Below, piece by piece: positions 1 to 52,300 of a stretch of DNA of 52,300 nucleotides. Source of the stretch: Asterionella formosa. Lineage: Eukaryota. Every line of letters begins with the position of its first letter. Positions within the stretch are counted from its first letter, which is position 1. The stretch is from assembly GCA_002256025.1 (NCBI GenBank), contig NKIB01013746.1, positions 1-52,300 on the forward strand, written 5' to 3'. The notes below the pieces were generated by a model. The model was not told the DNA's origin. It made no database searches and saw only the letters and a program-made list of their open reading frames with translations. The position numbers were made by a program, and so were the translations under genes.

Positions 1-793
1 TGTGGATATCAAAAGATCGTCCATACCTTAGAGGTGATGGCATTAGAGTTACAAAGAAAAGATGCACATTTTCCATTCCTGTAAATGTCCCTTTGTAATT
101 CGGGAATTAATCAATACCAAAACAAATTTGACCACAATTGAGATTGGTGACCTAAAACACACACAAAATAATGTTGTCAAGGATGGCATAAGAAAACGTA
201 TTCACAAATACTATCAGTCTGTGTTAATTACTTCCCTGAATAAATTGAACATGAAACCAGCACGTTACATTGCTGAGTCTAGGGCAAAAGGAATTCCTGG
301 CTGTTGATGAAAAATTGAAAAAGTGCATGAAACGACAACTCACTCGCTTACGCAATAAATCGGTTGGGCTAATAAATGGTCAAGGCAATAACTGGGGAGT
401 AATCGCTGCTGTCCTTGAATTGTATAAGAAGGAAAATATCTTTAATTTCACCCAACATTCGATGTACCTACCTACTTGGCATAGACTGTCGACCAGAAGA
501 CGACTCTTTGGTAGCTGTACTAACAACCGAGAATTTTTTTCGAATGCGTACACACAGCAATTCTGGGGCAATCCAATCTTCTTTGCTGCTGATGCATCTT
601 ACAGACTGACACAAGAAGGAAGCGGCGTTTTTCCACTTATTACAACCAACTTGGCTCAACAAACAAAAACGATTGCATATGGAGTGATAAGCCATGAACA
701 CACCACAAAGGGCAAAGATTCATATTTGCGTCAATTAAGTCTGCCCTGGAAGAACTCGTTAGATATAGGAAAACTAATGATATTCCTATCTAG
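1..793 (+). pseudogene. N-terminal half of a Mutator-like (MULE) transposase, frameshifted, 5' end outside window
   Basis: Joining frames gives KKRCTF..SCKCPFVIRE...GDLKH (WRKY/FLYWCH-like Zn finger), then FFAADASYRLTQEG..FPLITT...IAYGVISHE (first catalytic Asp at 591-593 and the beta1-3/E pattern of MULE DDE). After a 1-nt shift it reads GQRFIFASIKSALEELVRYRKTNDIPI with a stop at 791-793. Confidence 0.7.
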
Positions 794-895
794 TATTGAT
801 AACTTTTATAATCAGCACTACTACTTGTGCTTTTCTAAATTTGTCATCCTTTCATATCTAAGCTACCTCCATGTTATCATCCTTTAATATCTAAG

Positions 896-2380
896 TTACC
901 TCCTCGTTTCGAATTTTGATTTGTCCAGAACCTTTATTCTTAATACTAGGCTTTGGATGCATTGTCTTTCGTAAGGTAGAAATAATTCCACAGTCAAATG
1001 CAAAAGCACATGCATGTTACACCACGCATTTGCTAAATACGCGTGACAATGGCACGATATGAGGCCTTCATTGCCCATTGCTTTCAAGCTATTGATCGAA
1101 ATGGGTCCCAATCCACACCTTCCCAAAATTCCTAAAAAGTATGTTAGAGCAACATCATCGTTTTCACTCTTGGACACAATAGGTTCAATAAGGTGAAACC
1201 TGCGGGTGAGGGAAAGGACATCATCAAATGTGTGGTTAGCATAATACTGTTCAGGATTTCGGAGAAGGCGCTTGTACTCATCATGGATTTTGTTCTTCTT
1301 TATCAATTGCATAACAGTTAGTGCAGTAACTGATTCTGTGTTCCCGATATAAAGATATCTCTTTCTGGATTGGGATAGTTGACTGTGCTGTGAGAATGCA
1401 GTTGCAGTATTCTGGGACTGCATTGTTTGCATAGAGGACATAATATTTAGGTCCACAAATGACGATGTTGCAATCAACAATTAATCCTCTCCGATTCTAA
1501 TTGAATCACACTTGAAATCAAATGTCACTGTGAGAAATGTAGCTTCTCCATTTTGGCTTTCTCAAGAAGCTTATAAATAGACTTGTAGAAATTTATCGAG
1601 TGAACCGATGAGTGTAAGGTGGGGCAAAATGAGCGATAGATCCCCTTTGGAACGATCCTCTAGCATGTACGACATGTTATGAATGAAGTTAGCCGTTAAA
1701 GGCTTCCTGTGGTCAAAGAATGATTTATCGCCACTGTTGATGCCCTCTGAATTGTTGTTGTGTGCAGGCAAACCACCACGAAGTAGATTGGAACTGGTGT
1801 TCAATTCAATTCTGGTGTGAATGGTGGGACCCCATTGTTTTAACCATGCAGATGCAACTTTCTTTTCCTTGTATGTGTTGATCCACTTGAAAATCATCAA
1901 ATCGCGGAGGATTGGAACTAGCTGTATCCAGGGACTTCTTTTATACGCCTCGAAGTCTTCACCCATTCTCTTCTTGTTTTTGTCGTATTTCTTGAACTTT
2001 CCTCTATGCTTCTTTAACCATTCATTCCAGGCATGATAAGAGCACATACCAAATGTAAATTCAGCATTTGGCCAAATCTTCTTGACAGCCTTGCGACAAG
2101 CTAAGGTATAATCAGTCATTGTCTGTATGATAAAGTCTGGTGAGTCCGGTTCCCAGCACCAAGGAGTGTCATCATGGGGAAGAGGAAAATCGTCAGTGCG
2201 TGCTGGAGTGTCGCCTGCAGGTGACAATGGCAGGATGGAAAAGTTAATGGGATCTACCCCTTTTTTCCCAGAAGAGGAAGCACTATCATCTGACGAACTA
2301 TCTCCTGAACTCTGCAAGATGCTATCATCCCCCTCCTCAGAGGAGGATGAATTTTGAGATGAGTTGGAAGAACTAGACAT
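896..2380 (-). pseudogene. C-terminal half of a MULE transposase (second Asp, CxxH, Glu, SWIM finger), frameshifted
   Basis: ORF 2380-1571: Ser/acidic leader, then QTMTDYTLACRKAVKKIWP...MCSYH...HNNNSEGIN (MULE D, CxxH and NNxxE motifs). ORF 1480-896: ISCHCHAYLANAWC(x)H = SWIM CxC-x7-CxH with a 1-nt shift. Confidence 0.8.
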
Positions 2381-3269
2381 TTCGTATTTGTGGAGCGACT
2401 TTTGACAAAAAGTAATTCATGGATACACATGACAATTCCAAATATAATGCCGATATTATGTATTATGTGGACTTTTACTGCCGAGTGGAATGACAGACCT
2501 ACAGGATTACATGTTAATTCGTCCAACTGCTGGTACCACAACATATGTATATAGTGATGTATATTATATATGCTTGGCATGCATAATGAATATGCTTGGC
2601 ATACTTAATACTGGGTACCAGATACCATCAGGTAGTACTTCCATTTGTGTTTGTAGTACAGCTGCCTGTGGTATAGGGTCAATGAGACAGCAATTCCATC
2701 TGGACCATGACGAAATTATGGAGTTGAATATCTTCACGAATATTGACAATGAACAATTCCTATTTAGCATGTGTATTCAGACTAACATAGAAGAGATTAT
2801 CGTTCAATAATAAAAATTTTTGCACTAGTATTGACAACAAAAAGTTAAAATCGGCGCTGGAAGTTGTTTTTGGTCGTCATTTGCTCAGTTTTGAAGATAT
2901 GACCAAAGTAGCGACAGTGTTGAGTCCGCCATGATTAGCTTGTTGATAACTTTGACTAGATAAGGTTTTCTATGTTTTTTAGAAATAGATGAGAAAGCCT
3001 GAGCGACAGTATTCTCGGAGAAGGTACAACATTTCAAGATGCAACAAATTCCTCTACGTCAATTTTGTAGTGAGTTTTATGTACACACTAATTGTCATGG
3101 TTCATATTTCTATGGAATCTTGATAAGTCATTTGACAGCTTACTATGACATACTTTTAGCCATTCAACAATAGACTGCTTGTTCATTACGCGAATAAAAT
3201 CTTCGCATCGCGGAAATGATCACGAACTCCCCTGACTGACGGTGTATATGCAAAAATGTATTCTTTCAG

Positions 3270-3835
3270 CCCATTTCAGTATTCCAATATAACTTGGTAT
3301 AATTTGGTGTCATTTTCATTTAGGAAATCAGTGTCATCAAGTTCAGGATGGAACTGTGGTGGTGCAGGTACATCAAGTTTAGTCTTGAACATTGCTTTGA
3401 GTGGTCCATACTATGTTGCTTCAATGACTGGTATGGCCTTTTCTAGGTAATCCTCAGCAGAGATGAACCAGGCTTCACTCCCGTTATCCAACTGTTGTTT
3501 TCCAATAATAGCTCAAAGTTATCTAGTGGGGGTCCCACATCTTTGAGCCGAGAAAGGAATGGTGTAAAGGAATGGTGGTTCCGCAAATGTGGTGTTGATG
3601 ATTTGTAAGGGATACTCTGAAATGCACAAAATGTCGTCCACATACACTAAGATGTACTTATAATATTCAAAACCATTTGATCTTCTTGCTTCACAGTACC
3701 ACATGTCAGGGTTCAAGTAGTAATGTGGGATAAAGTGCAAGTCCCATAAGGTAGAGGGAAAATGTGTACGCCGTGCTACACCGGCCGGAACTCGTCCTTA
3801 GGCCATATTGGGCCCTAACAATGATGGCGATTTCT
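3270..3835 (-). mobile_element. Ty1/copia (diatom CoDi-like) reverse transcriptase remnant
   Basis: IVRAQYGLRTSS, NPDMWY...YYKYILVYVDDILCIS (YVDD), and downstream PPQFHPELDDTDFL...LYQ; several frameshifts. Confidence 0.85.
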
Positions 3836-4399
3836 GTTTACGCAATATATCATATACCCACCAATTGAAAGCTGGTTGATCATCGATGTGATTGTCAATG
3901 GAATAATTTGCAACTTCGACAGCGTTGGTTTCTTTTAACTCGTTTAGTGCATACGCCGTTTATGGCACTTTTTCGAATTTATATCTACAGTGACGTTAAA
4001 CAAAACCTTATTTCACTTATCGAATAATTATGTGATCATACCAATAATTATGTGTGCTCGTGACAATATATGTTGACCAACTAGCCATCGGGGCAGAATA
4101 AAAGCGAAATTATGCTGCTCCGCTGCAATATGCTGCTGCTTTCAACATATAATGAACGAAAGAGCTGCCAATTCCGATTCACTTATTATTTTTTTCTGCT
4201 CTGACATATTTCTTTGATCTCAACTGGCAAACATCAACACATGTAAGAGGAAGATTCACACAGTAGAATTCAGCACACATAGTAGTAGTTGCTTTTGTAG
4301 ACATATTTTTTAGTCATTGTTGATTGTAGAGTTCACAATAGCCTAACAGATTAGAAATAAAGCACCGTTGGTCCTTGTTGAGAATCGCTGAGCATTGCA

Positions 4400-5790
4400 T
4401 GTCGCCTTAGTGAGGACGTCGAAAGTAAAATGTATAAAAAGAAGCAAAGGATGAGTAGAAATCAACGATGGAATTCGTAAAATTCTTTAGGAATAGTTGT
4501 TGCATATTTGCATGTCGCTGTAGTGAGTGGAAATTGAGATGTGCCACAATGGCCTTCTCCTCTTCGTATCAGCTACAATAGTTTACAGCGATAGCTTGAA
4601 CAAGCACAATATAGAAAAAGAAGCAGAGGAGGAGCAGCTGTCAACGATTGAAATCATAAAATTGCTTAGAAACAGCTGTTGCATATTTTGACATTCAATG
4701 CATGTTTCCATAGTGAGGAGTCAAAATTGAGATGTGCCGCAATGGCCTTCTCCATTTCGGAGCAGCTACAATGAGTCTACAGCGATAACTCTAGCAAGCA
4801 CAATATAGAAAAAGAAGCAAAGGATGAATAGCTGACAGCAATTGAAATCGTAAATTCGTTAAGAAACAGCTATTGCATATTTTAATATTCAATGCATGGT
4901 GTCGCTGTAGTGACTCGAAATTGAGATGTTCCGCAATGGTCGTCTTTTCTGAGCAGCTAAAAATAGTCTACAGCGATAACTTTAACAAGCACAATATAGA
5001 AAAAGAAGCAGAGGAGGAGCAGCTGTCAACGATTGAATTCATAAAATTGTTTATTTACAGCTGTTGCATATTTAACCTTACATGTCGCCGTAGTGAGTCA
5101 AAATTGAGATGTGCCGCGATGGCCTCCTCCATTTCGGAGCAGCTACAAATATTTTACAGCGATAACTCTAGCAAGTACAGCAAAGAAAAAGAAGCAAAGG
5201 ATGAGTAGCTGTCAACGATTGAATTTGTAAAATCATCACTTAGAAACAGCTGTTGCATATTTCAACATTCAATGGCGCTGTTTGTCGCCATAGTGAGTCA
5301 AAATTGAGATGTTCCGCAATGGCCTTCTCAGTTTCGGAGCAGCTACAAATAGTCTACAGCGATAACTTAATCAAGAACAATATAGAAAAAGAAGGAGAGG
5401 AGGAGTAGCTGTCAACGATTGAATTCGTAAAATTGTTGAGGAACAGCTGTTGCATATTTTAACCTTCAATGCATGTCGCCATAGTGAGTCAAAATTGAGA
5501 TGTGCTGCAATGGCCTTCTCCGGTTTGGAGTAGCTAGCAAAAGTCTGAAGCAATAACTTTAGCAAGCACAATATAGAAAAGAAGCAAAGGATGAGTAGCT
5601 GACAACAATTTAATTCGTAAATTCGTTAAGAAACAGCTGTTGCAGCATATTGCAACATTTATTTTATGTCGCTGTAGTGAGTCAAAATTGAGGTGTGCAT
5701 GCCGCAATGGCATTCTCCTTTTCCGATCGGCTAAATTACATCTATATTGATAACTGTAGCAATAACAAATTGGATGTAAAGGCAAGGGCC
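4400..5790 (+). repeat. Tandem satellite A, ~190 bp unit, ~7 copies
   Basis: Anchor TTGAG(A/G)TG recurs at 4534, 4727, 4921, 5104, 5304, 5495 and 5688. Confidence 0.95.
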
Positions 5791-6079
5791 AACGAGATGA
5801 AGACTATCAGCTTCATTGAATTCAACCACTACATAACCTGTATTTTTCGCAATATTTTGCACTTTTCTGCACATCACCAGTCAATACACTCCAAAAATAT
5901 TCGCTGATGTCTGATTTGACCAATAAAACTCTTAGAAAATTAGTAGATGGATGCATTTCGGTAGAGAATAATAACTTTTGAGTTTTGGTGCATTCCTGCT
6001 GATGTAATAACTATCATCACGGGATACTAGCACATCCTATGGTAGTAAATCAAAAATGAGAAATGCCACAATTGCCATC

Positions 6080-7930
6080 TACAAATCCTAATGCCTCCTT
6101 TGATCAATATATGTTCATTATGAGTGTATCGACATTTGCCTTGACGGTATCATTGATTTTGTGTACATCTAATACAATGCTAGAGAGAAATCGGCCTTAA
6201 TTGGATAAGAAAGATTGAGCACTGATGATCAGTCCACCACCACCGAAAATTTACACACCAGCCATCCTGATGACCAATTTGATCAATATATGTTCATTCT
6301 CAGAATATCGACATTCTCCATGACGACATTGATCTCATGTACATCGAATAGTATGCTGGATAGAAATCAGCCTTAAAATGGCGGAGAAAGAGGGTTTGGA
6401 ATTTCTGTTGCTACAGCACTGGTTATGCAGCAGTCCACAGTAGTACCAAAAATTTACACACTATCCTGATGACTTATTTGATCAATTTATGTTCATTCTC
6501 AGAATATCGACATTCGCCATGACGAAATTGATCTTATGTACATCGAATTGTATGCTGGATAGAAATCAGCCTTAATATGGCGGAGAAAGAGGGTTTGGAA
6601 TTTCTGTTGCTACAGCACTGGTCATGCAGCAGTCCACAGCAAGCACCGAAAATTTACACACCATCCTGATGACCAATTTGATCATTATATGTTCGTTCTC
6701 AGAATATCGATATTCTAAGTGACGACACTGATCACATGTACATTGAATACTATGCTGGATAATAACCGGCCTTAAAATGGCGGAGAAAGAGGGTTTCGAA
6801 TTTCTGTTGCTGCCGCAGCACTTGTGATGCAGCAGTCCACAGCAAGCACCAAACAATTACACACCATAATTATGACCAATTTGATCATTATATGTTCGTT
6901 CTGAGAATATCGATATACTGAGTGATGGCACTGATCTCATATACATCGAATACTATGCTGGATAGAAATTGGTCTTAAATTGGTGGAGAAAGAGAATTTG
7001 GAATTTCCGTTGCTACAACACTGATGATCATTCCACAAGCACAGAAAATTTACACATCATAATGTCTCCTTTGATAAATATGTGTTTGTTCTGAGAATAT
7101 CGACATTCGAAATGACAACATTGAGCTTGTGTACATCGAATACTATGCTGGATAAAAATCGGCCTTAAAATGGTGGAGAAATATGGTTTGGAACTTTTGT
7201 TACCACAGCACTGATGTTCAGTCCACAGCAAGTACCAAAAATTTACACGCCATCCTGATGACCAAATTGATTAACATTTGTTCGTTCTCAGAATATCGAC
7301 ATTTGCCATGACGACTTTGATCTTGTGTACATCAAATACTTTGCTGGATAGAAATCAGCCTTAAATTGGTGGAGAAAGATGGTTTGGAATCTCCGCCGCT
7401 GCTACTGGCTGGTCATGCAGCAGTCCACAAACTCCGAAATTTTACACACCATCCTGATGAACAATTTGATCATTATATGTTCGTTCTGAGAATATCGATA
7501 TACTGAGTGATGGCACTGATCTCATGTACATCGAATACTATGCTGGAGAGAAATTGGCCTTAAATTGGTTAAGAAAGATTGTTTGGAATTTTTGTTGCTT
7601 CATCACTGATGATCAGTCCACAAGCACCGAAATTTTACACATCCTAATGACCAATTTGATCAATATATGTTTGTTCTGAGCATATTGATCTTCGGAATGA
7701 CGTCACTGCCCTCGTGTACATCGAATACTATGCTATATAGAAATCGGCCTAAAATCGGTGGAGAAATATGTTTTGGAATTTTGGTTGCTACAGCACTGGT
7801 CATGCATCAGTCCACAGCAAGCACCGAAATTTTACACATTCTGATGCCTCCATTGATCAATATATGTTCGTTCTGACGAGCATATCAATATTTGACATGA
7901 CCGCATTTCATTCGTGAACATCAAATACTA
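6080..7930 (+). repeat. Tandem satellite B, ~191-200 bp unit, ~9 copies
   Basis: Anchor CATCCTGATGACCAATTTGATC (or variant) recurs near 6262, 6461, 6661, 6862, 7056, 7250, 7449, 7639 and 7836. Confidence 0.95.
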
Positions 7931-19179: not shown

Positions 19180-20770
19180 TGCTTGATAGAAAGCAGCGTT
19201 AAATTGGCGAAGAAAGATGGTTTGGAATACAGTTCATGCAGCAGCCCACAAGAACTGAAATTTTACACATCCTGATGACCAATTTGATCAATATATGTTC
19301 ATTCTGAGAATATCTACATTCACCATGACGGCATTGCTCTCGCGGACATTGAATACTATGTTGAATAAAAGTCGGCTTTAAATTGGTGGAGAAAGGTGGT
19401 TGGAATTTTTGTTGCCACAGTACTTATGATCATTGCACAGCAAGCAACGAAAATTTACACACCCTCTTGGCTGATGACCAATTCGATTAATATATGTTCG
19501 TTCTGAGAATATTGATATTCGAAATGACGGCAGTGATCTCCTGTACATCGAAAACTATGCTGGATACTAGAAATCGGCCTTAAATTGGTGGAGACAGATG
19601 GTTTGGAATTTTTGTAACGACAGCACTGCCTAATGATCAGTCCACAAGCACAGTAAATTTACACATCCTGATGTCGCCTTTGATCAATATATGTCCGTTC
19701 TAATCATATCAACATTCTATATGACTGCATTGATTTCTTGTACATCAAATACTATGCTAGATAGAAAGCGGCCTTAAATTGGTTGAGAAGGGTTGTTTGG
19801 AATTCTTGTTGCCACAGCTCTGATGATCAGTCCACAAGCATCCGAGAATTTACACATCCTGATGCCTCCATTGATCAATAGATATGTTTATTCTAAGAAT
19901 ATCGACATTCTCCATGACAGCATTGATCTCGTGTATATCGAAGCCACAGCACTTACAATCAGTCCACAAGCAACGAAAATTTATTTCACATCCTGATGAA
20001 CAATTTGATCAAAATATGTTCGTTCATAGTATATCGACATTCATTACGACGGCATTGATGTCATGTTCATCGAATACTATGATTGATATAAATTTGAATT
20101 AAATTGGTGGAGAAAGATGGATTGGAATTTTTGTTGCCACAGCACTGATGATCAGTCCACAAGCATCCGAAAAATTACACATCCGGATGCCTCCTTTGAT
20201 CAATATATGTTCGTTCTGATCATATCAACATTCGACATGACTGCATTGATTTCGTTTACATCAAATACTATGCTAGATAGAAATCGGCCTTAAATTGGTT
20301 GAGAAGGGTTGTTTGGAATTTTTGTTGCTTCTGCACTGATGATCAAGCCATCCTGATGACCAATTTGATCAATGTATGTTCGTTCTGAGCGAGCATATCT
20401 ACATTCGAAATATCGGCATTGATCTCGTGTAAATGGAATACTATGCTAGATAGAAATTGACAATTAATTGGTAGAGAAAGATGGATTGGAATTTTGGTTG
20501 TTAAAGCACTGGTCATCAGTTACAGCAGACACCTAAAATTTAAACATCCTGATGCCTCCTTTGGACAATATATGCTCGTTCTGAGAATATCGACATTCGA
20601 CCAGGAGCCTTTGATTTCGGGTACATCAAATAATATATTAGATAGAAATCGGCATCAAATTTGTTGAGAAAGAAAATGAATTGGAATTTAGGTTGCTACA
20701 GCACTGGTCATCAGTCCACATCAAGCACCAAAAACTTTTACACATCCTGATGACGAATTTGATCAATACT
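19180..20770 (+). repeat. Stand-alone array of satellite B, ~8 copies
   Basis: Same unit as 6080-7930 (CACATCCTGATGACCAATTTGATCAATATATGTTC...GGTGGAGAAAGATGGTTTGGAATT); no satellite A or terminus adjacent. Confidence 0.95.
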
Positions 20771-35540: not shown

Positions 35541-36815
35541 CAGGATGGTTTGTAAATATTCGGTGCTTGCTGTGGACTGCTGCATGACCAGTGCTGTTGC
35601 AAAGGAAATTCCGAACCATCTTGCTCCACCATTTTGAGGCTGATTTCTATCTACTAGTATAGTATTCGATGTACGCGAGATCAATGCCGTCATGTCGAAT
35701 GTCGATGTTCTCAGAATGAACATATATTGATCAAATTGGTCATCAGGATGGTGTGTAAAATTTCGGTGCTTACTGTGAACTTACCATCAGTGCTGTGGCA
35801 ACAAAAATTCCAAACCATCTTTCTAAACCAATATAAGGCCGATTTATATCCAGCGTAGAATTCGATGTACACGAGGTCAGTGCCATCATTTCCATACCTC
35901 CTTTCTCCACAAATTTAAAGCCGACTTTTATCCAACATAGTATTTGATGTACATGAGATCAATGCTGTCATTTTGAACGTCGATATTCTCAGAACAAATA
36001 TATATTGATCAAAGGAGACGTCAGGATGCATGTGTTGATTTGCTGTGCTTGTGGACTGATCATCAGTGCTGTGGCAACAAAAATTCCAAACCACCTTTCT
36101 CCACCAATTTAAGGCCGATTTCAATCCAGCATAGCATTCGATGTACACGAGATCACTGCCGTCATTTCGAATATCGATATTCTCAAAACGAACATACATT
36201 GATCAAATTGGTCATCAGAATGGTGCGTAAAATTTCGGTGTTTGCTGTGCTGGACTGCTGCATGACCAGTGCTGTTCCAACAAAAATTCCAAACCATCTT
36301 GCTCCACCATTTTAAGGCTTATTTCTTTCCAGCATAGATTTTGATGTTCACGAGATCAATGTCGTCATGGCCAATGTCGATATTCTGAAAACGAACATAT
36401 ACTGATCAAAGGAGGCACCCGGATGCGTAAATTTTCGGATGCTTGTGGACTGATCATCAGTGCTGTGGCAACAAAAATTCCAAATCATCTTTCTCCACCA
36501 ATTTAAGGCCCATTTATATCCAGCATAGTATTCGATGTACATGAGATCAATGCCGTTATGGCGACTGTTGATTTTCTGAGAACGAACATAAAAGGAGGTA
36601 TCAAGATGTGTAAATTTTGAAAATTTTCGGTGATGGTTGACTGATATGATCAATGCTGTAGAAACGAAAATTCAAAATCATCTTTCTTTCTCCACCAACT
36701 TAAGGCCGATTTCTATCCAGCATAGTATTCCATGTACAAAGGATCAATGCCATCAAGGCGAATGTAGAAATACTCATAATGAACATATATTGATCAGAGG
36801 AGGCATCAGGATGTG
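35540..36815 (-). repeat. Satellite B, inverted, ~6.5 copies
   Basis: GATCAAATTGGTCATCAGGATG and GATCAAAGGAGGCATCAGGATG units. Confidence 0.95.
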
Positions 36816-37129
36816 TAGATGGCGATTGTGGCACTTCTCATTTTTGATTTACTACCATACTAGGATGTGCTAGTATGCCGTGATGATAGTTAGTACATCA
36901 GCAGGGGCGCACCAAAACTCAAAGCTATTATTTTCTACCAAATTGCATCCATCTACTAAACTGCTAAGAGTTTTATTGGTCAAATCAGACATCAGCAAAT
37001 ATTTTGGGAGTGCATTGACTGGTGGTGTACAGAAAAAGTGCGAAATATTGCAAAAATACAGGTTAGCTATGGAGTGGTTGATTTCAATGAAGTTGATAGC
37101 CCTCATCTCCTTGGCCCTTGCCTTTACGA

Positions 37130-38410
37130 CCAATTTGTTATTGCTACAGTTATCAATATAGATGTAATTTAGCCGATCGGAAAAGGAGAATGTCATGATT
37201 GCGGCACATCTCAATTTTGACTCACTATGGCGGCGACATACAATGAATGTTAAAAATATGCAACAGCTGTTTCTTAACAACTTTACGAATTAAATTGTTG
37301 TCAGCTACTCTTTCTTTGCTTTTTTTACTATATTGTGCTTGCTAAAGTTATCGCTTCAGACTATTGCTATCTGCTCCAAACCGGAGAAGGACATTACGGC
37401 ACATCTCAATATCGACTCACTACGGCGACATGCATTGAATGTTGCAACAGCTGTTCCTAAACAATTTACGAATTCAATCGTTGACAGCTGCTCCTCCTCT
37501 GATTCTTTTTCTATATTGTACTTGTTAGAGTTATCGCTGTAGAATATTTGAAGCCGCTCCGAGAAGGAGACGGCCATTGCGGCACATCTCAATTTCGACT
37601 CACTAGCTACGGCGACATACATTGAATACTAAAAATATGTATAAACGAACTAACAAATTCAATTGTTGTCAGCTACTCATCCTTTTTTAATAATTTTTCT
37701 ATATTGTACTTAAATAATTTTTCTATATTGTACTTGCTAAAGTTATCGCTGTAGACTATTTGTAGCTGCTCCGAAACGGAGAAGGCCAATGAGGCACATC
37801 TCAATTTTTACTCACTACCACGGCGACATGCATTGAATGTTAAAATATGCAACAGCTGTTTCTAAACAATTTCACGAATTCAATCGATGAAAGCTGCTCA
37901 TCCTTTGCTTCTTTTTCTATATTGTACTTGCTAGAGTTATCGCTGTAGACTATTTGTAGCCGCTCCGAAAAGGAGACGGCCATTGCGGCACATCTCAATT
38001 TGACTCACTATGGCAACATGCATTGAATATTAAAAATATGCAACAGCTGTTTCTTAACGAATTTACGTATTCAATTGTTGTCAGCTACTCATACTTTCCT
38101 TCTTTTTCTATATTGTACTTGCTAGAGTTATCGCTGTAGACTATTTGTAGCTGCTCCGAAACGGAGAAGGCCATTGCGGCACATCTCAATTTTGACTCAC
38201 TACGGCGACATGCATTGAATACTAAAAATATGCAACAGCTGTTTCTTAACGAATTTACGAATTCAATTGTTGACAGCTACTCATCCTTTCCTTCTTTTTC
38301 TATATTGCACTTACTAGAGTTATCGCTGTAGACTATTTGTAGCTGCTCCAAAACGGAGAAGGCCATTGTGGCACATCTATATTTCGATTCACTACTACGG
38401 AGACATGCAA
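37130..38410 (-). repeat. Satellite A, inverted, ~7 copies
   Basis: GGCACATCTCAATTTTGACTCACTA recurring every ~185-220 bp. Confidence 0.95.
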
Positions 38411-39463
38411 TGCTCAACGATGCTCAACGAGGACCAACAGTGCCTAATTTCTAATCTGGCAGGCTATTGTAATCTCTACAATCAACAATGACTAAACAAG
38501 GTGTCTACAACATCAACTACTACGACGTGTGCTGAATTCTACTGTGTGAATCTTCCTCTTGCATGTGTTGTTATTTGCCAGCAGTTGAGATCAAAGAAAT
38601 ATGTCGGAGCAGAAAAAATAATAATTGAATCGGAATTGGCAACTCTTTCGTTCATTATATGGTGAAAGCAGCATAATATTGTAGCGGAGCAGCATAATTT
38701 CGCTTTTATACTGTCCCGATGGCTAGTTGGTCAACATATATTGTCATGAACACACATAATTATTGGAGTGATCACAGAATTATTCGATAAGTGAAATACA
38801 TTTTGTTTAACCCGAATAAATTAGGGAAAAAGTAACATAATATTTCAAAAAACCCATAATATTTTAGAAAACTAACATAATATCTAAAAAAGTAGCATAA
38901 ATAAGTCACTTTAGACATAAATTCGAAAAAGTGCCATAAACGGCGTCTTAGATGTACTTCTGATTCGTCAATGACACAATCAACACAAGTAGGGCACGGA
39001 ACATAAGTATATGGAAGAGGATTGGCATTCACTAGTAGGGGCAATCCAACAGAAAACATGGTTGATTGTTGCATTGTTCGACGTTATTTTGTTGCTCAAA
39101 GGATGCCTAGTACACGATATGCTCGAGGTATATAACTAGAATCTATACATGTGTTCTCGTGGGGAGTAAAATTATGTCTAAATTGAGCAATGTAGAAATA
39201 ACATAAATGTCGTCATTCTTCTTGAAATGGAACTCTGTCAATGTGGCGCCATTTTCTACTCAGTTAAAATATTCAAACAGGTACTTGCATCATGGGAATG
39301 CACAGAAACAAATTCCCTGTTCCGCGTCAATTTTACAACCCTAGCGATTTTTTCTTCAAACTAGGGTTACGCCGGGGCCGCAACCTTGATTTGATCATAT
39401 TTCTAAATGACTTCTTGCTGATGTCACGTCTTCGATGCACCATCATAGACCTATTCATATTTC

Positions 39464-39850: not shown

Positions 39851-41130
39851 ATGACTAGCGCAAACGGAAATGGAAATGGAAATGGCTCCAATCCCAAGAT
39901 CGGGACTGATGTTGTCAAGTGTGGACTTGCGCAAATGCTAAAAGGCGGTGTAATTGTAAGTGCACACTTTTATACCCCATGGCGCCTCACTTTTCTTTGT
40001 TTTGATGGTCAAGACGAACCCAAATTTGGTGTCTTGCTGACGCATCACTCTAAAGAATTGATCGCTAAAGTATTCTTGCCTACGTCAACTGTGAAATGTG
40101 ACGCAGCGCAAAGCGAAGTCTTGACATTAATGGGATTCCCAACTCATACGATGAATCACAACACAACAGAAGCTAACAATTATGCCATTTTAAAATAATC
40201 TCATGCCGTTTCCTTTTATCACAGATGGACGTCATGAACGTCGAGCAGGCAATGATTGCAGAGGCGGCAGGAGCTGTCGCTGTTATGGCATTGGAGCGCA
40301 TTCCTGCCGATATCCGACTTGACGGTGGTGTGGCTCGAATGTCTGATCCCGCCATGATTAAGGAGATCAAGAACGCCGTGACTATTCCAGTCATGGCTAA
40401 GGCTCGTATCGGACACTTTGTGGAAGCACAGATCTTGGAGGCGTGTGAGATTGACTTTATTGACGAGTCTGAGGTCCTAACCATGGCTGATGATGTTCAC
40501 CACCTTGACAAGACTGTTTACAAGGTCCCATTCGTTTGTGGTTGTCGCAACCTCGGCGAAGCTCTTCGTCGTATCGCCGAGGGAGCTTCCATGCTTCGTA
40601 CGAAGGGTGAGGCTGGAACCGGAAATGTTGTAGAAGCCGTCCGTCATGCTCGTACTGTCTTGGGTGAGATCAGGAGATTGTCTTCGATGAGCAAGGACGA
40701 GCTATACGTTGCAGCCAAAGAAATGCGCGCCCCCTACGAGCTTGTTAAGTGGGTCGCCGACAACGGAAAGTTGCCTGTTGTCAACTTCGCGGCTGGAGGT
40801 GTCGCCACTCCAGCTGATGCAGCACTTATGATGCAGCTTGGTTTGGATGGTGTCTTTGTTGGATCTGGAATCTTCAAGTCCGCGAATCCCGAGGCACGTG
40901 CTCGTGCTATTGTTCAAGCTGTTACGCACTACAACGATGCCAAGGTCCTTATGGAGGTCAGCACCGGCCTTGGACCTGCCATGGTTGGTATCTCAGATAT
41001 TAATGCCGACCCCGTTAACTTTCGAGACAGAGAAGGTGGAGAATACCAGTACTCCGGAAAGGTCCCACCAAAGAAAGAATTACACGGACACACCGAAACT
41101 CAAATGTACGGATCTTCTTGGGCTAACTAA
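39851..41130 (+). CDS. PDX1: Pyridoxal 5'-phosphate synthase subunit PDX1 (SNZ/PdxS), 336 aa; exons 39851-39955 and 40225-41130
   Basis: [14 protein letters not shown] joined across a phase-0 GTAAG...ACAG intron (39956-40224); [70 protein letters not shown]. Confidence 0.98.
40000..40129 (+). ncRNA. Candidate intronic structured RNA (H/ACA snoRNA-like)
   Basis: Hairpin 40003-40047, ANANNA box AAAGAA 40052-40057, hairpin ~40062-40116, ACA at 40124-40126. Confidence 0.45.
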
Positions 41131-41714: not shown

Positions 41715-43313
41715 TCAATCGTCGCGCCTCGGAGAATCAGCGTCAAACAAAGAATATTGCTCAGAGTTGATGCTTGAAATTGTGTTTAATAGAGGACTGG
41801 AAGCGTGGCCACGAGTCGAAAGAAGGTTCCCATACCCCATGCTTCCTTGGCCTGAAGCTACTGGTACTCCATTAATGATCACGTGACTATTTTCTTGGTT
41901 CGGCATCTTCAAAACGTTCGGGCTTGTGCCATTTTCATTACTTGTACATCCATTCCAATATTGGCTTGGTCGGATTCCCTTTGAAGGTATTTTCATTTCT
42001 AGTGCAGACTCCAATGCGTTGTACAAACGCTCCGCTGCTTTCGGCTGCGGAATATAGTTAAGTACTTCTGGCACCTGCACTTTGCGTCCATAGAACTTTG
42101 CGTTGATATCGCTTCTCGTCGTCACCACAGATCCTTCCAACGAAATGCCTACGAAAAGTCCACTAGAATGCGCGTACGCGTAAGCTGGTTGCAGTTTGGC
42201 GGATGAAGATAAATGAGCTCCTCTACCGACAGGCCCCACCGCGACTCCCATTTCAGCTCCAAAAGTCAAACTCGACGAATGTCCCAATGCCTCGACTGCT
42301 TTTGTAGTGGTAAAAACTACTAGATAGTGAGTGAGATCCCCACCGACTTGAGCACCCCACCCAATTCCTACAGTTCCTAAGGCACAGGGCGCGGACCAGC
42401 TCCCATCTGGCTTTCTCGCAAGGATCAACCCGGTCCCCATCTTCCCCGAGACCACCAAACCAGCTTTGAAAACAGTCAGGAAGCAAAGCCCCTTAGCTTG
42501 GTGAAGCAAGTCAAGTGGGATCGACTGGTCGCTCTCATTCCACCCATCCTTACAAATGAGCTGAACCATATGCGTTGCCTGTCGGATCGCTGACCCTAAT
42601 GTGTACGAGAGCGGATTCATCAGTTTCAAAGCAGTCTGAATCGTGGATGCTTCCAAACGAATATCACGGTCACATGGAGCCTTCACTTCCGTGGACAGAA
42701 AGTCTTCTATTTCCACATGTATTTCTCGAGGTAGTATCTTTCGATTGTAACAACCAATAAGGTCAACTAACCATACATCCAATTGAATTTTGCGGTAATT
42801 GACGAGCTCTTCGTGTTGGTGAGGAGCCAATGCCAGCGAAGGAGTCCACTGTCCCATGCGGCCCGCCCAGTGCTTGGTAGGAAAGGACGACTCCAATCTG
42901 ACTGCATGGGTTTTAAGCAGGGCGTTGAGCTTGGCAAACTCTGAGTATCGGTGTTCCACAATAACAGGCTCAGCAAAGCCGGGAAATCCGACAGAAATAA
43001 CAAATACAGTATATGCGGCACCCGACAGATCGTCCCTGGATTCTGCAGCAATGATGCGCACGACGATATCGTGAGATGATTGCGCCCTTCGCTTCTCTTC
43101 TGATAGCTGAGTGAGACCTGATCCATGTTTCCTCCATATCTGACGGGCGTCTTCTGCAGCGTTCACGGAAGGCGGCGTCGCTGGAAGCAACGGATGCCGA
43201 TAACGTTGCAGTGGAGGCACGTTGTCGTGCAGCTCGGCATATCGCTGCTGCTGCGCTCGCAGCTGCGCTTCTTCGAGAAACGACAAGCGGGCCTCTTGCG
43301 AAAGGCGACGCAT
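41715..43313 (-). CDS. PX-domain + SYLF (Ysc84/SH3YL1-type) domain protein, 532 aa
   Basis: PX: YTVFVISV...HRYSEFAKL...FPTK...RKIQLDVWL. SYLF: IPLDLLHQAKGL..KAGLVVSGKMGTGLILAR..GSWSAP..GWGAQVG...AVGPVGR...YAHSSGLFVGISLEG...R.DINAKFYG. Confidence 0.9.
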   Translation of the reverse strand: MRRLSQEARLSFLEEAQLRAQQQRYAELHDNVPPLQRYRHPLLPATPPSVNAAEDARQIWRKHGSGLTQLSEEKRRAQSSHDIVVRIIAAESRDDLSGAAYTVFVISVGFPGFAEPVIVEHRYSEFAKLNALLKTHAVRLESSFPTKHWAGRMGQWTPSLALAPHQHEELVNYRKIQLDVWLVDLIGCYNRKILPREIHVEIEDFLSTEVKAPCDRDIRLEASTIQTALKLMNPLSYTLGSAIRQATHMVQLICKDGWNESDQSIPLDLLHQAKGLCFLTVFKAGLVVSGKMGTGLILARKPDGSWSAPCALGTVGIGWGAQVGGDLTHYLVVFTTTKAVEALGHSSSLTFGAEMGVAVGPVGRGAHLSSSAKLQPAYAYAHSSGLFVGISLEGSVVTTRSDINAKFYGRKVQVPEVLNYIPQPKAAERLYNALESALEMKIPSKGIRPSQYWNGCTSNENGTSPNVLKMPNQENSHVIINGVPVASGQGSMGYGNLLSTRGHASSPLLNTISSINSEQYSLFDADSPRRDD

Positions 43314-43633
43314 CGTGCAGTAATTGTTTCTTGGTTTTTCTCGTCGTTAGACTTTTACTACTACCACACGTACCGGTACAACAGTTGCTCTTCCTTATTT
43401 TATTGCTGACAAGCAATGATCAACCGTGGAATTTGCTCAAGCACATGAAATGTACTGCTGTGTCGTCGTTTCCTGTATCGCGCATTATTTCTACACGACA
43501 ATCGTTATAAACGTGCGTAGGGGTGTTATTATCGATATAAACTGAGTTGCAACAGCATCATCTCACCCCGTAACGGGATACGAACAAACATCAAACAAGG
43601 AAACTCAAATCAAATTGAATTTTTGAATTACGC

Positions 43634-50387: not shown

Positions 50388-51338
50388 TTATTTGGTGCAT
50401 GAGATGCATCCCTCCTGCTCATGGCAACTTGCTGATGTGTCTACATCAATCGAAGCAACAATAATTTCTTCAGGCTGTTGTTCGCCAGTTGCATCTACAA
50501 TGTCAGGAGCAAGTACGTCACCCTCACAATAACTCGAAGCAACAAGTTTAACCCTGTTTTCGCCAAGTGTGACCAAAGTTGGTGGCAGGAAAATTGCGGA
50601 CTCTATTTTTTCGACAGGTGCCTGTAAGGATAGCATAATTTCTTCCATTTCTAGAGGTTCCTGTAAGGGTGGCATAATTCCTTCCATTTCATCGTTTTCA
50701 TTCCTTAATCCTTGATCAATCGTCGGTAATACAGGTGCATTATGTGTTTCTGTAACATTAGTGTTCACTGATGCACCTGTTCCATTTTCGTCGTGAAGTA
50801 ATATCAGATCATTGCCACTCTTTCTATTGGTACCCACCAAATAGTTTCGTCGACAACATGGGCATGTTTGTTTCTTTTGCAGCCATTCCAATATACAGTC
50901 CTTATGAAATATGTGGCCACAATCTGTGTTTCTAGAAGACGCCACCACGTCACCGATTTCATAGTCCATAATACAGATGTCACAGGTTGATTTCGTTAAT
51001 GAATCCAACAAACGGGTCGCTGCTATAGTGGCAGTACCTGATGGTCCTTCCTGGGGGTCAAATGCCTCATTGTCAACAACGAGTTCTATGTCCAGCATAG
51101 CTTCCATCTGCTCTCGAGTCTTTGGTGGAAACAACAAGAAGCAAAAGATGCAAGAAATAAATAAAAGAAGGAGAAGTAATGGAAGGACGAAAACAATTAG
51201 AAAAATGAGTTTGACAGCTAACGAAATAGCATTGGAAACACGAGAACTTATTGGTCGACCTGCTGGTACATCGTCGTCGAATGGCGATCCAGTTGGAATT
51301 TCTAACGTGACTGTCGATGTAGTGGTAGTAGGGCTCAT
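50388..51338 (-). CDS. Transmembrane RING-H2 E3 ubiquitin ligase (ATL-like), ~316 aa; upstream exon possible
   Basis: TM LIFLIVFVLPLLLLLLFISCIFCFLLF; CDIC..DY..GD...CGHIFHKDCILEWL..KQTCPCCR. Confidence 0.9.
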   Translation of the reverse strand: MSPTTTTSTVTLEIPTGSPFDDDVPAGRPISSRVSNAISLAVKLIFLIVFVLPLLLLLLFISCIFCFLLFPPKTREQMEAMLDIELVVDNEAFDPQEGPSGTATIAATRLLDSLTKSTCDICIMDYEIGDVVASSRNTDCGHIFHKDCILEWLQKKQTCPCCRRNYLVGTNRKSGNDLILLHDENGTGASVNTNVTETHNAPVLPTIDQGLRNENDEMEGIMPPLQEPLEMEEIMLSLQAPVEKIESAIFLPPTLVTLGENRVKLVASSYCEGDVLAPDIVDATGEQQPEEIIVASIDVDTSASCHEQEGCISCTK

Positions 51339-52300
51339 GGCGCTTGCTGGAGATCTCTACGAACCAACTGTGAATACAACCAAAGCCAGTAAGGCTTGGG
51401 TTGGGTTTTTCATGCACAAAAAGATCGAATTCGCTTTGATGTAATCGAGTCGTGCTATGTTCCACCTCAAGCAAGCACAGAGCACTTGTTCGTATATCGG
51501 TAGTAGTAACATCCGAGCAGGAGCAGAACCATGGCAGCAATCTCAACAGTATATACCGGTAGTCCATAGTTGACTACCTGGTGGAGTACCGGGTAACAGT
51601 ACTCCGTAGTGCTGTTTGTATGTACGTATTCCACCAGCGCGGTACCTGCTACCACTTAAAAACTGTAAGCCACCGTTATTTTACTCTATCTTTCGACTAA
51701 AAATATTTATGTAATTCAACGATCAAAACTTGACGCAAGTACAAAGCTTATGTTAGACAATGCTCTCTGCTATACTATTAAGTAATCAGTTTTGATTCTG
51801 TGTATATAGCCATGAAGAAATAATTTTTCCAAAGTCAGTAATATTATTGCATAGCGGTGGCTTACAGTGCACATTTTTCTATTTGTACATGCATATATTT
51901 TCCCCCCAAACCGTGTTTATTTTTACTCCGTTAATACTACAAAAATTATTTTCTTATTACTTTACGTTTTACACTTTTGCAGGGCAGCATCATCGTCGGA
52001 GAATTCTTCTGATGCATTACATAAATCTCGAGCTTCTTTGCATCCAATTACTTGCTGACGGAGTCTCAAACTTCATCATGGAATGGTGGATCCTCGGCAG
52101 TAGCAGTTGTAGAAGGAGAGGGAATAGCAACAGGAGGAGGTGCAGTAACAACAACCACAGCAATAGGAGGTGTATGGAGAGGGAATGGCGGCTGCTGGTC
52201 ACCACGGTGATTGGTGTCGTCGAATCTTGTAATCAGAGCTTGCCTTGTTTGTGGAACCGGCAAATCACCTGATCGTTTGTACCAACGCACCATTAATTTC

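Follow-up and report, generated by a model that had tools for sequence, protein, structure and literature searches.

The stretch of DNA analysed here comprises 52,300 nucleotides (nt) of contig NKIB01013746.1 of the alga Asterionella formosa (assembly GCA_002256025.1) and is called the window below. Its left end carries two damaged genes, designated gene N and gene C, which lie tail to tail and each encode one part of a transposase-like catalytic domain. Gene N on the plus strand codes for a zinc finger resembling the WRKY-GCM1 type, a linker, and strands beta1 to beta3 and helix alpha1 of a ribonuclease H (RNase H)-like fold, directly after which it stops with a TAG codon. Gene C on the minus strand starts with an ATG at 2378-2380 and, when its frame is followed, ends with a TAG at 891-893. 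It encodes a leader rich in serine and acidic residues, a linker with the motif RTDDFPLP..WCWEP, strand beta4 with the second aspartate and a CxxH motif; these are followed by a helical insertion, the catalytic glutamate, a SWIM finger and a basic tail. The coordinates of all these features are collected in Table 1.

Table 1. Positions of the two convergent genes and of their conserved features in the window. P numbers designate family proteins from public sets, A numbers alignments; HMM, hidden Markov model.
Feature	Position	Strand	Observation
N gene, pseudogene, 5' end off the window	3..793	+	N-half HMM E 1e-49; 40-51% identity to residues 82-343 of P0001
Zinc-finger ligand region KKRCTF / HSCKCPFVIREL / GDLKHTQNN	~54..172	+	Matches the family-invariant C, C, H, H
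beta1 with first catalytic Asp, FFAADASYRL	579..608	+	Asp invariant in 14/14 N-halves, also in fused forms
beta2, GVFPLITTN	624..650	+	
beta3, TIAYGVISHEH	669..701	+	
alpha1 helix and 10-residue tail, QRFIFASIKSALEELVRYRKTNDIPI	713..790	+	Followed by the conserved stop TAG, 791..793
Spacer between the two stop codons, 97 nt	794..890	.	
C gene, pseudogene	891..2380	-	C-half HMM E 6e-121; 47-49% identity to P0004
SWIM-type zinc finger SCHCHAYLANAWCNMH, C-x-C...C-x-H	1010..1057	-	C, C, C, H invariant in A1 and A5
Catalytic Glu block GGLPAHNNNSEG...DK (NNNSEG)	1724..1777	-	E253 (A1), E161 (A5) invariant
CxxH motif GMCSYHAW (CSYHAW)	2027..2050	-	C and H invariant in A1 and A5
beta4 with second catalytic Asp, IIQTMTDY	2108..2131	-	D132 in A1, D43 in A5 invariant
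In-frame TGA, 12 codons upstream of the C gene ATG	2417..2419	-	

These features agree with a preliminary description of the locus, which had let an N-half end at 793 on the plus strand and had placed the missing remainder (MTD, CxxH, NNSE, SWIM) on the minus strand behind an ATG at 2380. An in-frame stop does lie upstream of gene C, 12 codons before the ATG, and the 3' ends do face each other, with the correction that gene C does not extend to 896. The copy had also been called frameshifted, and the damage is in fact considerable. At least five frameshifts, near 66, 297 (4 extra nt), 465, 541 and 699 (2 extra nt), have to be followed in gene N, so that its reading path runs through frames 3, 2, 3, 1, 3 and 2 in succession; the one near 66 breaks the ligand region of the zinc finger. 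Position 3 of the window aligns to residue 82 of P0001, and therefore about 80-100 N-terminal codons of gene N lie off the window. In gene C, frameshifts near 1640, 1557 and 1016 are accompanied by a TAA codon at 1481-1483; the literal open reading frame (ORF) running from 2380 to 1571 comprises 269 amino acids (aa), and the stop-to-stop frame 281 aa.

Chance resemblance of the two genes to their family can be excluded because of the expectation (E) values with which the family HMMs match the window (Table 1). Both parts have diverged from their best relatives to a similar extent. When compared with the fused protein P0123, the N part corresponds to residues 272-325 and the C part to residues 357-529; the two halves are complementary and do not overlap, as had been described before. 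The spacer between them and the stop codon of gene C are spanned by a direct duplication of 27 nt (844-870 and 877-903, period 33, 2 mismatches).

Relatives of gene N were collected by a word-indexed search with the N part, followed by a profile search at E <= 0.001. The word-indexed search led to three N-half proteins of 343-377 aa, all ending where the N frame of the window stops, and the profile search yielded 22 proteins. In alignment A4, whose N-halves are 20-38% identical to the first sequence, 14 out of 14 stop within 7 columns (623-629) directly past alpha1. About 10 residues follow the helix, and these tails can be aligned with each other (..V(E/D)xVVxxRxxxxxx-stop). The finger residues C279, C287 and H314 are invariant in A4, as is the catalytic aspartate (14/14), and H311 is conserved to at least 90%. 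Longer members of the N-half clusters are extended at the N-terminus only, and one runs 6 residues beyond a lost stop.

For gene C, an exhaustive HMMER search with its ORF against 1.84 billion representatives gave 154 matches at E <= 0.001. The C-half HMM was covered to at least 80% by 41 representatives, 39 without an N-half and 2 fused. Nearly all C-only proteins checked (35 of 38) start with methionine, and their starts fall at the linker before beta4. Their leaders are unrelated and of varying length; the fraction of Asp, Glu and Ser amounts to 0.31-0.76 in the clade of the window and some other members, compared to 0.19 overall. As many C-half members have no such leader, it is a recurrent but non-defining trait of the C-halves. 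The second aspartate, the C..H pair, the glutamate and the four SWIM ligands are invariant in 17 C-halves (A1) and in 14 (A5), and the residues of the Asp-Asp-Glu (D-D-E) triad with C..H after the second aspartate are thereby all conserved across N- and C-halves. The parts are separate proteins in 14/14 relatives of N and 39/41 relatives of C, which distinguishes the family from the Mutator superfamily with its customary single-chain enzyme. Profile scans of genome contigs and viral contigs (A3 for N, A2 for C) revealed no relative.

The conserved stop, the homologous tail and the low-complexity leaders behind a methionine make intron read-through or a gene-calling artefact a poor fit. A deep family of putative half-transposase genes with conserved ends and conserved catalytic residues is thus well supported by the alignments. 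Fused single-chain relatives were found in three clusters only, represented by P0073 (859 aa), P0123 (782 aa) and P0223 (865 aa). The N-half HMM recognises the first two of them with E values of 1e-52 to 1e-55, and a C-half is present in both as well. Since the three fused proteins carry both parts in order, the two halves are pieces of one ancestral protein. The fused forms share the domain order of the split ones (zinc finger, DAS(Y/H)RY, REDNDLFP linker, (I/M)KD, C..H, NNALES, SWIM), but they are single chains, in which a short REDNDLFP linker takes the place of the stop codon, spacer and second start codon of the split forms. They are 22-32% identical to the clade of the window. The split itself is a family trait and not the outcome of a single inversion at this locus. 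A split family had been preferred to a one-off inversion or a tail-to-tail pair already in the preliminary description, and stand-alone halves with shared ends speak in favour of it; its expectation that the stop after alpha1 should recur holds for all 14 aligned N-halves, and the serine leader recurs in part, being present in the clade of the window and some others.

Within the 52-kb window, neither a second copy of the element nor a terminal-repeat partner was found. The stretch is present in public sequencing runs (20 rows from 12 studies, labelled as algal or freshwater metagenomes), and four runs were examined. Contigs matching positions 1-3000 of the window at 90-100% likeness numbered 7,897 in run X1 and 323 in run X2. 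The element is a many-variant repeat in the source alga, because so many contigs of X1 and X2 cover this part of the window. Some contigs skip from 127 to 2031 or from 655 to 1953, with filler letters, and join N and C parts; to judge from these joints, they seem to be derivatives with internal deletions extending across both genes. Other copies are without the 4 nt at 297 or without the 2 nt at 698, or have an extra T at 1016 and 1557, and according to our reading of the frames these changes would restore the ORFs. The frame-restoring variants form a minority in X1 at 297, 698 and 1016, and mostly the majority in X2, X17 and X18.

The spacer is bridged by a 267-nt contig of a metatranscriptome from another study (X17, record 11), which matches positions 666-822 and 877 to about 970, has 19 other letters in place of 823-876 and carries the frame-restoring 2-nt deletion at 698. 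As this contig and contigs of independent runs cover the convergent junction, the junction is not peculiar to this copy or to this assembly. It is well supported that the repeated element of the source alga carries two genes tail to tail. None of the joints listed for the four runs, a list from which 7 more are missing, switches strand from one half to the other. Both genes are covered by contigs from RNA libraries. In X17 and X18 this coverage drops to about 1 or 0 at 2401-2600, where the DNA runs continue; a transcript might begin near 2400, although the indication is weak. In the DNA runs, the summed depth of the contigs at positions 2650-3000 of the window is about 10 times that at the transposase genes (depth figures from the runs are not copy numbers), and many loose ends occur at 2656, 2907, 2943 and 2996. 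This segment is another, more abundant repeat that adjoins the upstream region of gene C, and the loose ends look like its variants; it might also represent a terminal part of the element that non-autonomous copies have in common with it.

The structures of both halves were predicted with AlphaFold2. The N-half model (predicted local distance difference test score, pLDDT, 73) ends with beta1, beta2, beta3 and a long alpha1, and the C-half model (pLDDT 75) starts with beta4, alpha2 and beta5, followed by a helical region and a helix from the glutamate onwards. Co-folding of a probably cognate pair, residues 225-524 of the N protein P0210 with the C protein P0008, gave a score of 0.84, the best of 3 controls reaching 0.00. 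Among solved complexes, 51 of 78 reach the mark used for such scores, compared to 2 of 108 among mismatched pairs; for eukaryotes, the figures are 39 of 65 (solved) and 2 of 126 (unrelated). The co-fold runs share at least 74% of their contacts, with a partner pLDDT of at least 61. The predicted interface comprises residues 450-457 (beta1 with Asp456), 472-482 and 494-518 (alpha1) on the N side and residues 35-43 (beta4 with Asp43), 47-56 and 152-163 (around Glu161) on the C side; in the model this is the beta1-beta4 pairing of the RNase H-like sheet. The co-fold supports binding of the predicted N and C proteins to each other, and the heterodimer proposed in the preliminary description stands as a prediction. 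An alignment of fused proteins with both halves (A6, built with MAFFT) misplaced the N-halves and was not used for folding. A profile search of the PDB sequences returned no relative of the family.

We infer that the N and C proteins associate and rebuild one D-D-E active site. The N protein would contribute DNA binding by its zinc finger together with beta1-beta3 and alpha1, including the first aspartate, and the C protein would contribute beta4 with the second aspartate, the CxxH motif, the helical insertion, the glutamate, the SWIM finger and the basic tail. Beta1 of N would pair with beta4 of C and so complete a single D-D-E site, and mobility of the element would require the products of both genes.

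The assignment to a superfamily is based on several weak but concordant lines of evidence, which point to a Mutator-like family. The label of a Mutator-like element (MULE), given to the locus before, agrees with these lines, but the threshold of the Pfam model is not reached. A Pfam search with five pieces of the window gave chance rows only and nothing for MULE at E <= 1. Sub-threshold matches to Pfam MULE (PF10551) were obtained for P0001 (E 0.061), P0003 (E 0.14) and P0123 (E 0.012), all on positions 3-59 of the 99 profile positions, which is the segment of the N-half. Pfam SWIM matched P0007 below the threshold (E 0.014), and matches to the RNaseH-like domain of ZSWIM1-3 were sub-threshold as well. 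The C-terminal SWIM finger (C-x-C-xn-C-x-H), a feature of MULE transposases, is present with its four ligands invariant. In the ESM Atlas, the ten best named clusters for P0123 are MULE/SWIM proteins (0.97, 201 of 256 features), which we regard as a lead only.

Structural comparisons point in the same direction. When the finger model of P0002 (residues 69-157) was compared with 48,161 chains, the top 3 were the Aft2 DNA-binding domain (Z 6.4, root-mean-square deviation (rmsd) 3.0, 75 residues aligned), WRKY33 (Z 5.5) and AtWRKY1 (Z 5.3), with more WRKY chains at ranks 10 and 44; Foldseek returned 4lmg with a prob of 0.96. We take the Aft2 DNA-binding domain to have the WRKY-GCM1 fold, and the models thus give moderate support (Z < 8) to an N-terminal finger of this type. 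ISCth4, presumably a transposase of the IS256 family, was the best structural match of the C-half model: its chains (PDB 6xgx, 6xg8) occupy Foldseek ranks 1, 2 and 10 with E 0.33-1.9, the best being a weak match (E 0.33, prob 0.94, 102 columns). In the VIA comparison, residues 30-155 of the C-half were matched to residues 225-340 of ISCth4 at rank 3 (Z 6.3, rmsd 4.5, 113 aligned), a Z value within the range of chance. Structure searches with the N-half model brought up no transposase among the matches listed, those of Foldseek being mostly noise. A WRKY-GCM1 zinc-finger domain has been assigned to MULE transposases, as stated in the accessible part of PMC1702500.

Phylogenetic trees were calculated by a quick search for the C domain (40 rows) and by a careful search for the N domain (17 rows), both unrooted and without an outgroup. 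The two trees agree on three broad groups, and the fused proteins form one clade in each of them with a support of 99-100; a single change therefore explains how split and fused forms are distributed. Under midpoint rooting, the fused clade of P0073, P0123 and P0223 is nested among split forms in both trees. A midpoint root would imply a secondary re-fusion and a root on the fused branch one ancient fission, and both are possible. A search for an outgroup yielded one new fused cluster and no Pfam-labelled MULE.

Linkage of the two genes in relatives was judged from the sizes of contigs. P0210 (N, 524 aa) and P0008 (C, 427 aa) each stem from a JGI contig of 3710 bp, and P0236 (N, 328 aa) and P0017 (C, 484 aa) each from a Logan contig of 3009 bp. 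Both sizes are long enough for an N and a C gene, and by a rough estimate about 0.02 chance equalities are expected among the ~180 pairs of contigs of at least 2.9 kb. The members of each pair appear to share a contig. For a scan of metagenome loci, alignment A1 was too diverse, and the closer A2 was used instead; it led to 5 C-gene loci, mostly short. The C gene of locus L001 has a canonical intron of 78 nt (L001:953-1030, GT..AG) between ..HCYSHY and KVYSIV... At locus L004, the HMM match breaks at the profile position of this intron, and the window copy has no intron there. On the minus strand of L001, an uninterrupted ORF of 1419 aa with a DUF6824 domain (E 2.5e-15) occupies positions 1695-5954.

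The best explanation of these results, and in our judgement a probable one, is that positions 1-2419 of the window hold a defunct copy of a repetitive DNA transposon which belongs to a divergent Mutator-like (MULE/IS256-like) lineage and whose transposase is naturally encoded by two genes. This judgement applies to the explanation as a whole, including the inferred association of both proteins. A number of observations weigh against it. Both genes of the window copy are pseudogenes. Positions 1-4200 contain no convincing inverted repeat of the terminal kind that MULEs carry along with target-site duplications of 8-11 bp, the left end of the element lies off the window, and its right end is undefined. 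The score of P0123 for Pfam MULE, 16.5 bits against a cut-off of 27.6, is the best of any member. Halves of split domains tend to pass the co-folding mark by their likeness to single-chain folds, and the co-fold was run without our own alignments. The contigs from RNA libraries are strandless and may include DNA, so that of the inward transcription proposed earlier only the cover of both genes stands. The linkage of P0210 with P0008 and of P0236 with P0017 was judged from equal contig size only, and that of a further pair, P0049 and P0226 (both 1875 bp), was rejected as a chance equality, the contigs being too short for both genes. The convergent order has been read solely in the family of this genome: it recurs, as had been expected, in other copies of the source alga and in the X17 contig, but at L001 an intact C gene is followed 40 bp downstream by an unrelated convergent ORF, with no N-half signal in the 4.6 kb downstream of the C gene. 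None of the 5 metagenome C-gene loci gave an N-half signal, even at E <= 10.

In an alternative explanation, the half-genes are real without being catalytic partners. They might be truncated regulators or DNA-binding repressors, or domesticated host genes, and the repeat would be moved in trans by a single-chain transposase. Fused relatives do exist, and L001 with its intron-containing C gene next to an unrelated large gene, and with no N gene nearby, looks host-like. Moreover, most of the depth in X1 shares the frameshifts of the window at 297 and 698, as if dead copies were themselves amplified. Nevertheless, we consider this alternative unlikely. The fused forms found are few (3 clusters) and distant from the clade of the window (22-32% identity), half-proteins that are only 20-40% identical have kept all three catalytic residues, CxxH and the two zinc fingers without change, both protein ends are conserved, and the predicted interface rebuilds the beta1-beta4 sheet. 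Less probable still is an active enzyme of one chain whose halves are joined either after the DNA level, by trans-splicing, or by a programmed inversion of one half in the DNA. Direct evidence for such joining was not found; fused proteins do occur in transcript-sized contigs, and their nested position under midpoint rooting is compatible with repeated joining. Against it stand the stop codon and the homologous 10-residue tail conserved in 14/14 N-halves, the unrelated leaders of C-only proteins, 35 of 38 of which start with methionine, and the lack of a strand-changing joint among those listed for the four runs. The fused forms are, in addition, distant lineages and not isoforms of the split ones.

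The arrangement could finally be a one-off at this locus, caused by an inversion of the local DNA, by misassembly, or by the tail-to-tail insertion of two distinct truncated elements. The copy is indeed heavily mutated and situated at the edge of the window in a repeat-rich region. This explanation is already contradicted, and we give it hardly any weight: the junction is seen again in contigs of independent runs and is crossed by a contig from an RNA library, deletion derivatives join N and C parts, and many public sources contain stand-alone halves that end at the same points. Both parts, moreover, are about equally distant from their best relatives and match the same fused proteins without overlap.

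The region to the right of the element contains arrays of tandem repeats of 190-200 bp at 3953-7900, 19180-20715 and 35570-38946. They include two long inverted arms ~28-35 kb apart (for example 4009-4194 versus 38613-38798, 93% complementary), and a third array is located between the arms; the arrangement may represent the termini of a very large element or else a palindromic satellite. A short ORF at 3519-3740 on the minus strand contains the sequence ..YILVYVDDIL.. and has no Pfam match at E <= 0.001; we take this sequence to resemble the YVDD motif in reverse transcriptases of Copia-type retroelements. Beyond the repeats, ordinary eukaryotic genes follow, which encode a protein of the PdxS/SNZ family (40177-41130, plus strand, E 9e-99), a PX plus Ysc84 protein (41715-43346, minus strand) and a RING-finger protein (50388-51356, minus strand).

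DDE transposases, retroviral integrases and RAG1 are understood to carry their three catalytic carboxylates on one chain. Canonical MULE and Mutator transposases resemble the family described here in the DDE RNase H-like core with CxxH, the C-terminal SWIM finger and the N-terminal finger of the WRKY-GCM1 type; in contrast to their single ORF, which is recognised by Pfam, this family remains below the threshold and is split between alpha1 and beta4. In maize MuDR, the genes mudrA and mudrB are convergent, and the element is likewise of the Mutator type with two genes. However, the transposase of MuDR is encoded completely by mudrA, and mudrB specifies an accessory protein whose function is unknown, whereas gene C represents the missing catalytic half: it carries the second aspartate, the CxxH motif, the glutamate and the SWIM finger and is not an accessory gene of the MuDR kind. 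Tn7 needs two different catalytic polypeptides, the restriction-enzyme-like nuclease TnsA and the complete DDE enzyme TnsB. The likeness, two catalytic chains encoded by one element, is a functional analogy only, as Tn7 is bacterial and is not known to divide an RNase H fold between chains. PIF/Harbinger elements require two proteins as well, a transposase that keeps the whole DDE domain and a Myb-like partner; here, too, the partial separation of DNA binding and catalysis across two proteins is a functional analogy only. ISCth4 differs in being a bacterial enzyme of a single chain.

Additional ORFs in MULEs have been described previously. According to the accessible text of PMC6446971, maize MuDR carries two ORFs, several MULEs have extra ones (mudrB, MutB, a C2H2 protein), and a group named 'MULE-Diatoms' has one ORF with SWIM. 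The accessible part of a study of Phaeodactylum (10.1101/2023.01.02.522487) reports a MULE with one transposase ORF (Pfam MULE and SWIM) and an E3-ligase-like ORF. Eukaryotic transpososomes are described as built from identical protomers in the accessible part of a preprint (10.64898/2026.07.15.738711). The accessible literature on split, heteromeric and two-component transposases, supplements not covered, comprised work on Tn7 and an engineered piggyBat heterodimer and no natural split eukaryotic DDE domain.

Whether the elements constitute an old and widespread eukaryotic cut-and-paste lineage with an obligate heteromeric DDE transposase, encoded by two convergent genes with nearly touching 3' ends, is in our estimation evenly balanced; single-chain members may then be re-fusions. 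Neither half is recognised by Pfam, and such elements would therefore go unlabelled in algal genomes and plankton metatranscriptomes. If the two-gene transposase is true, the RNase H-like fold would tolerate being divided between alpha1 and beta4, and inducible transposase tools made of two parts could be modelled on a natural example. For the element itself, a two-component control of transposition would be built in, as both genes would be needed and their convergent transcripts might overlap.

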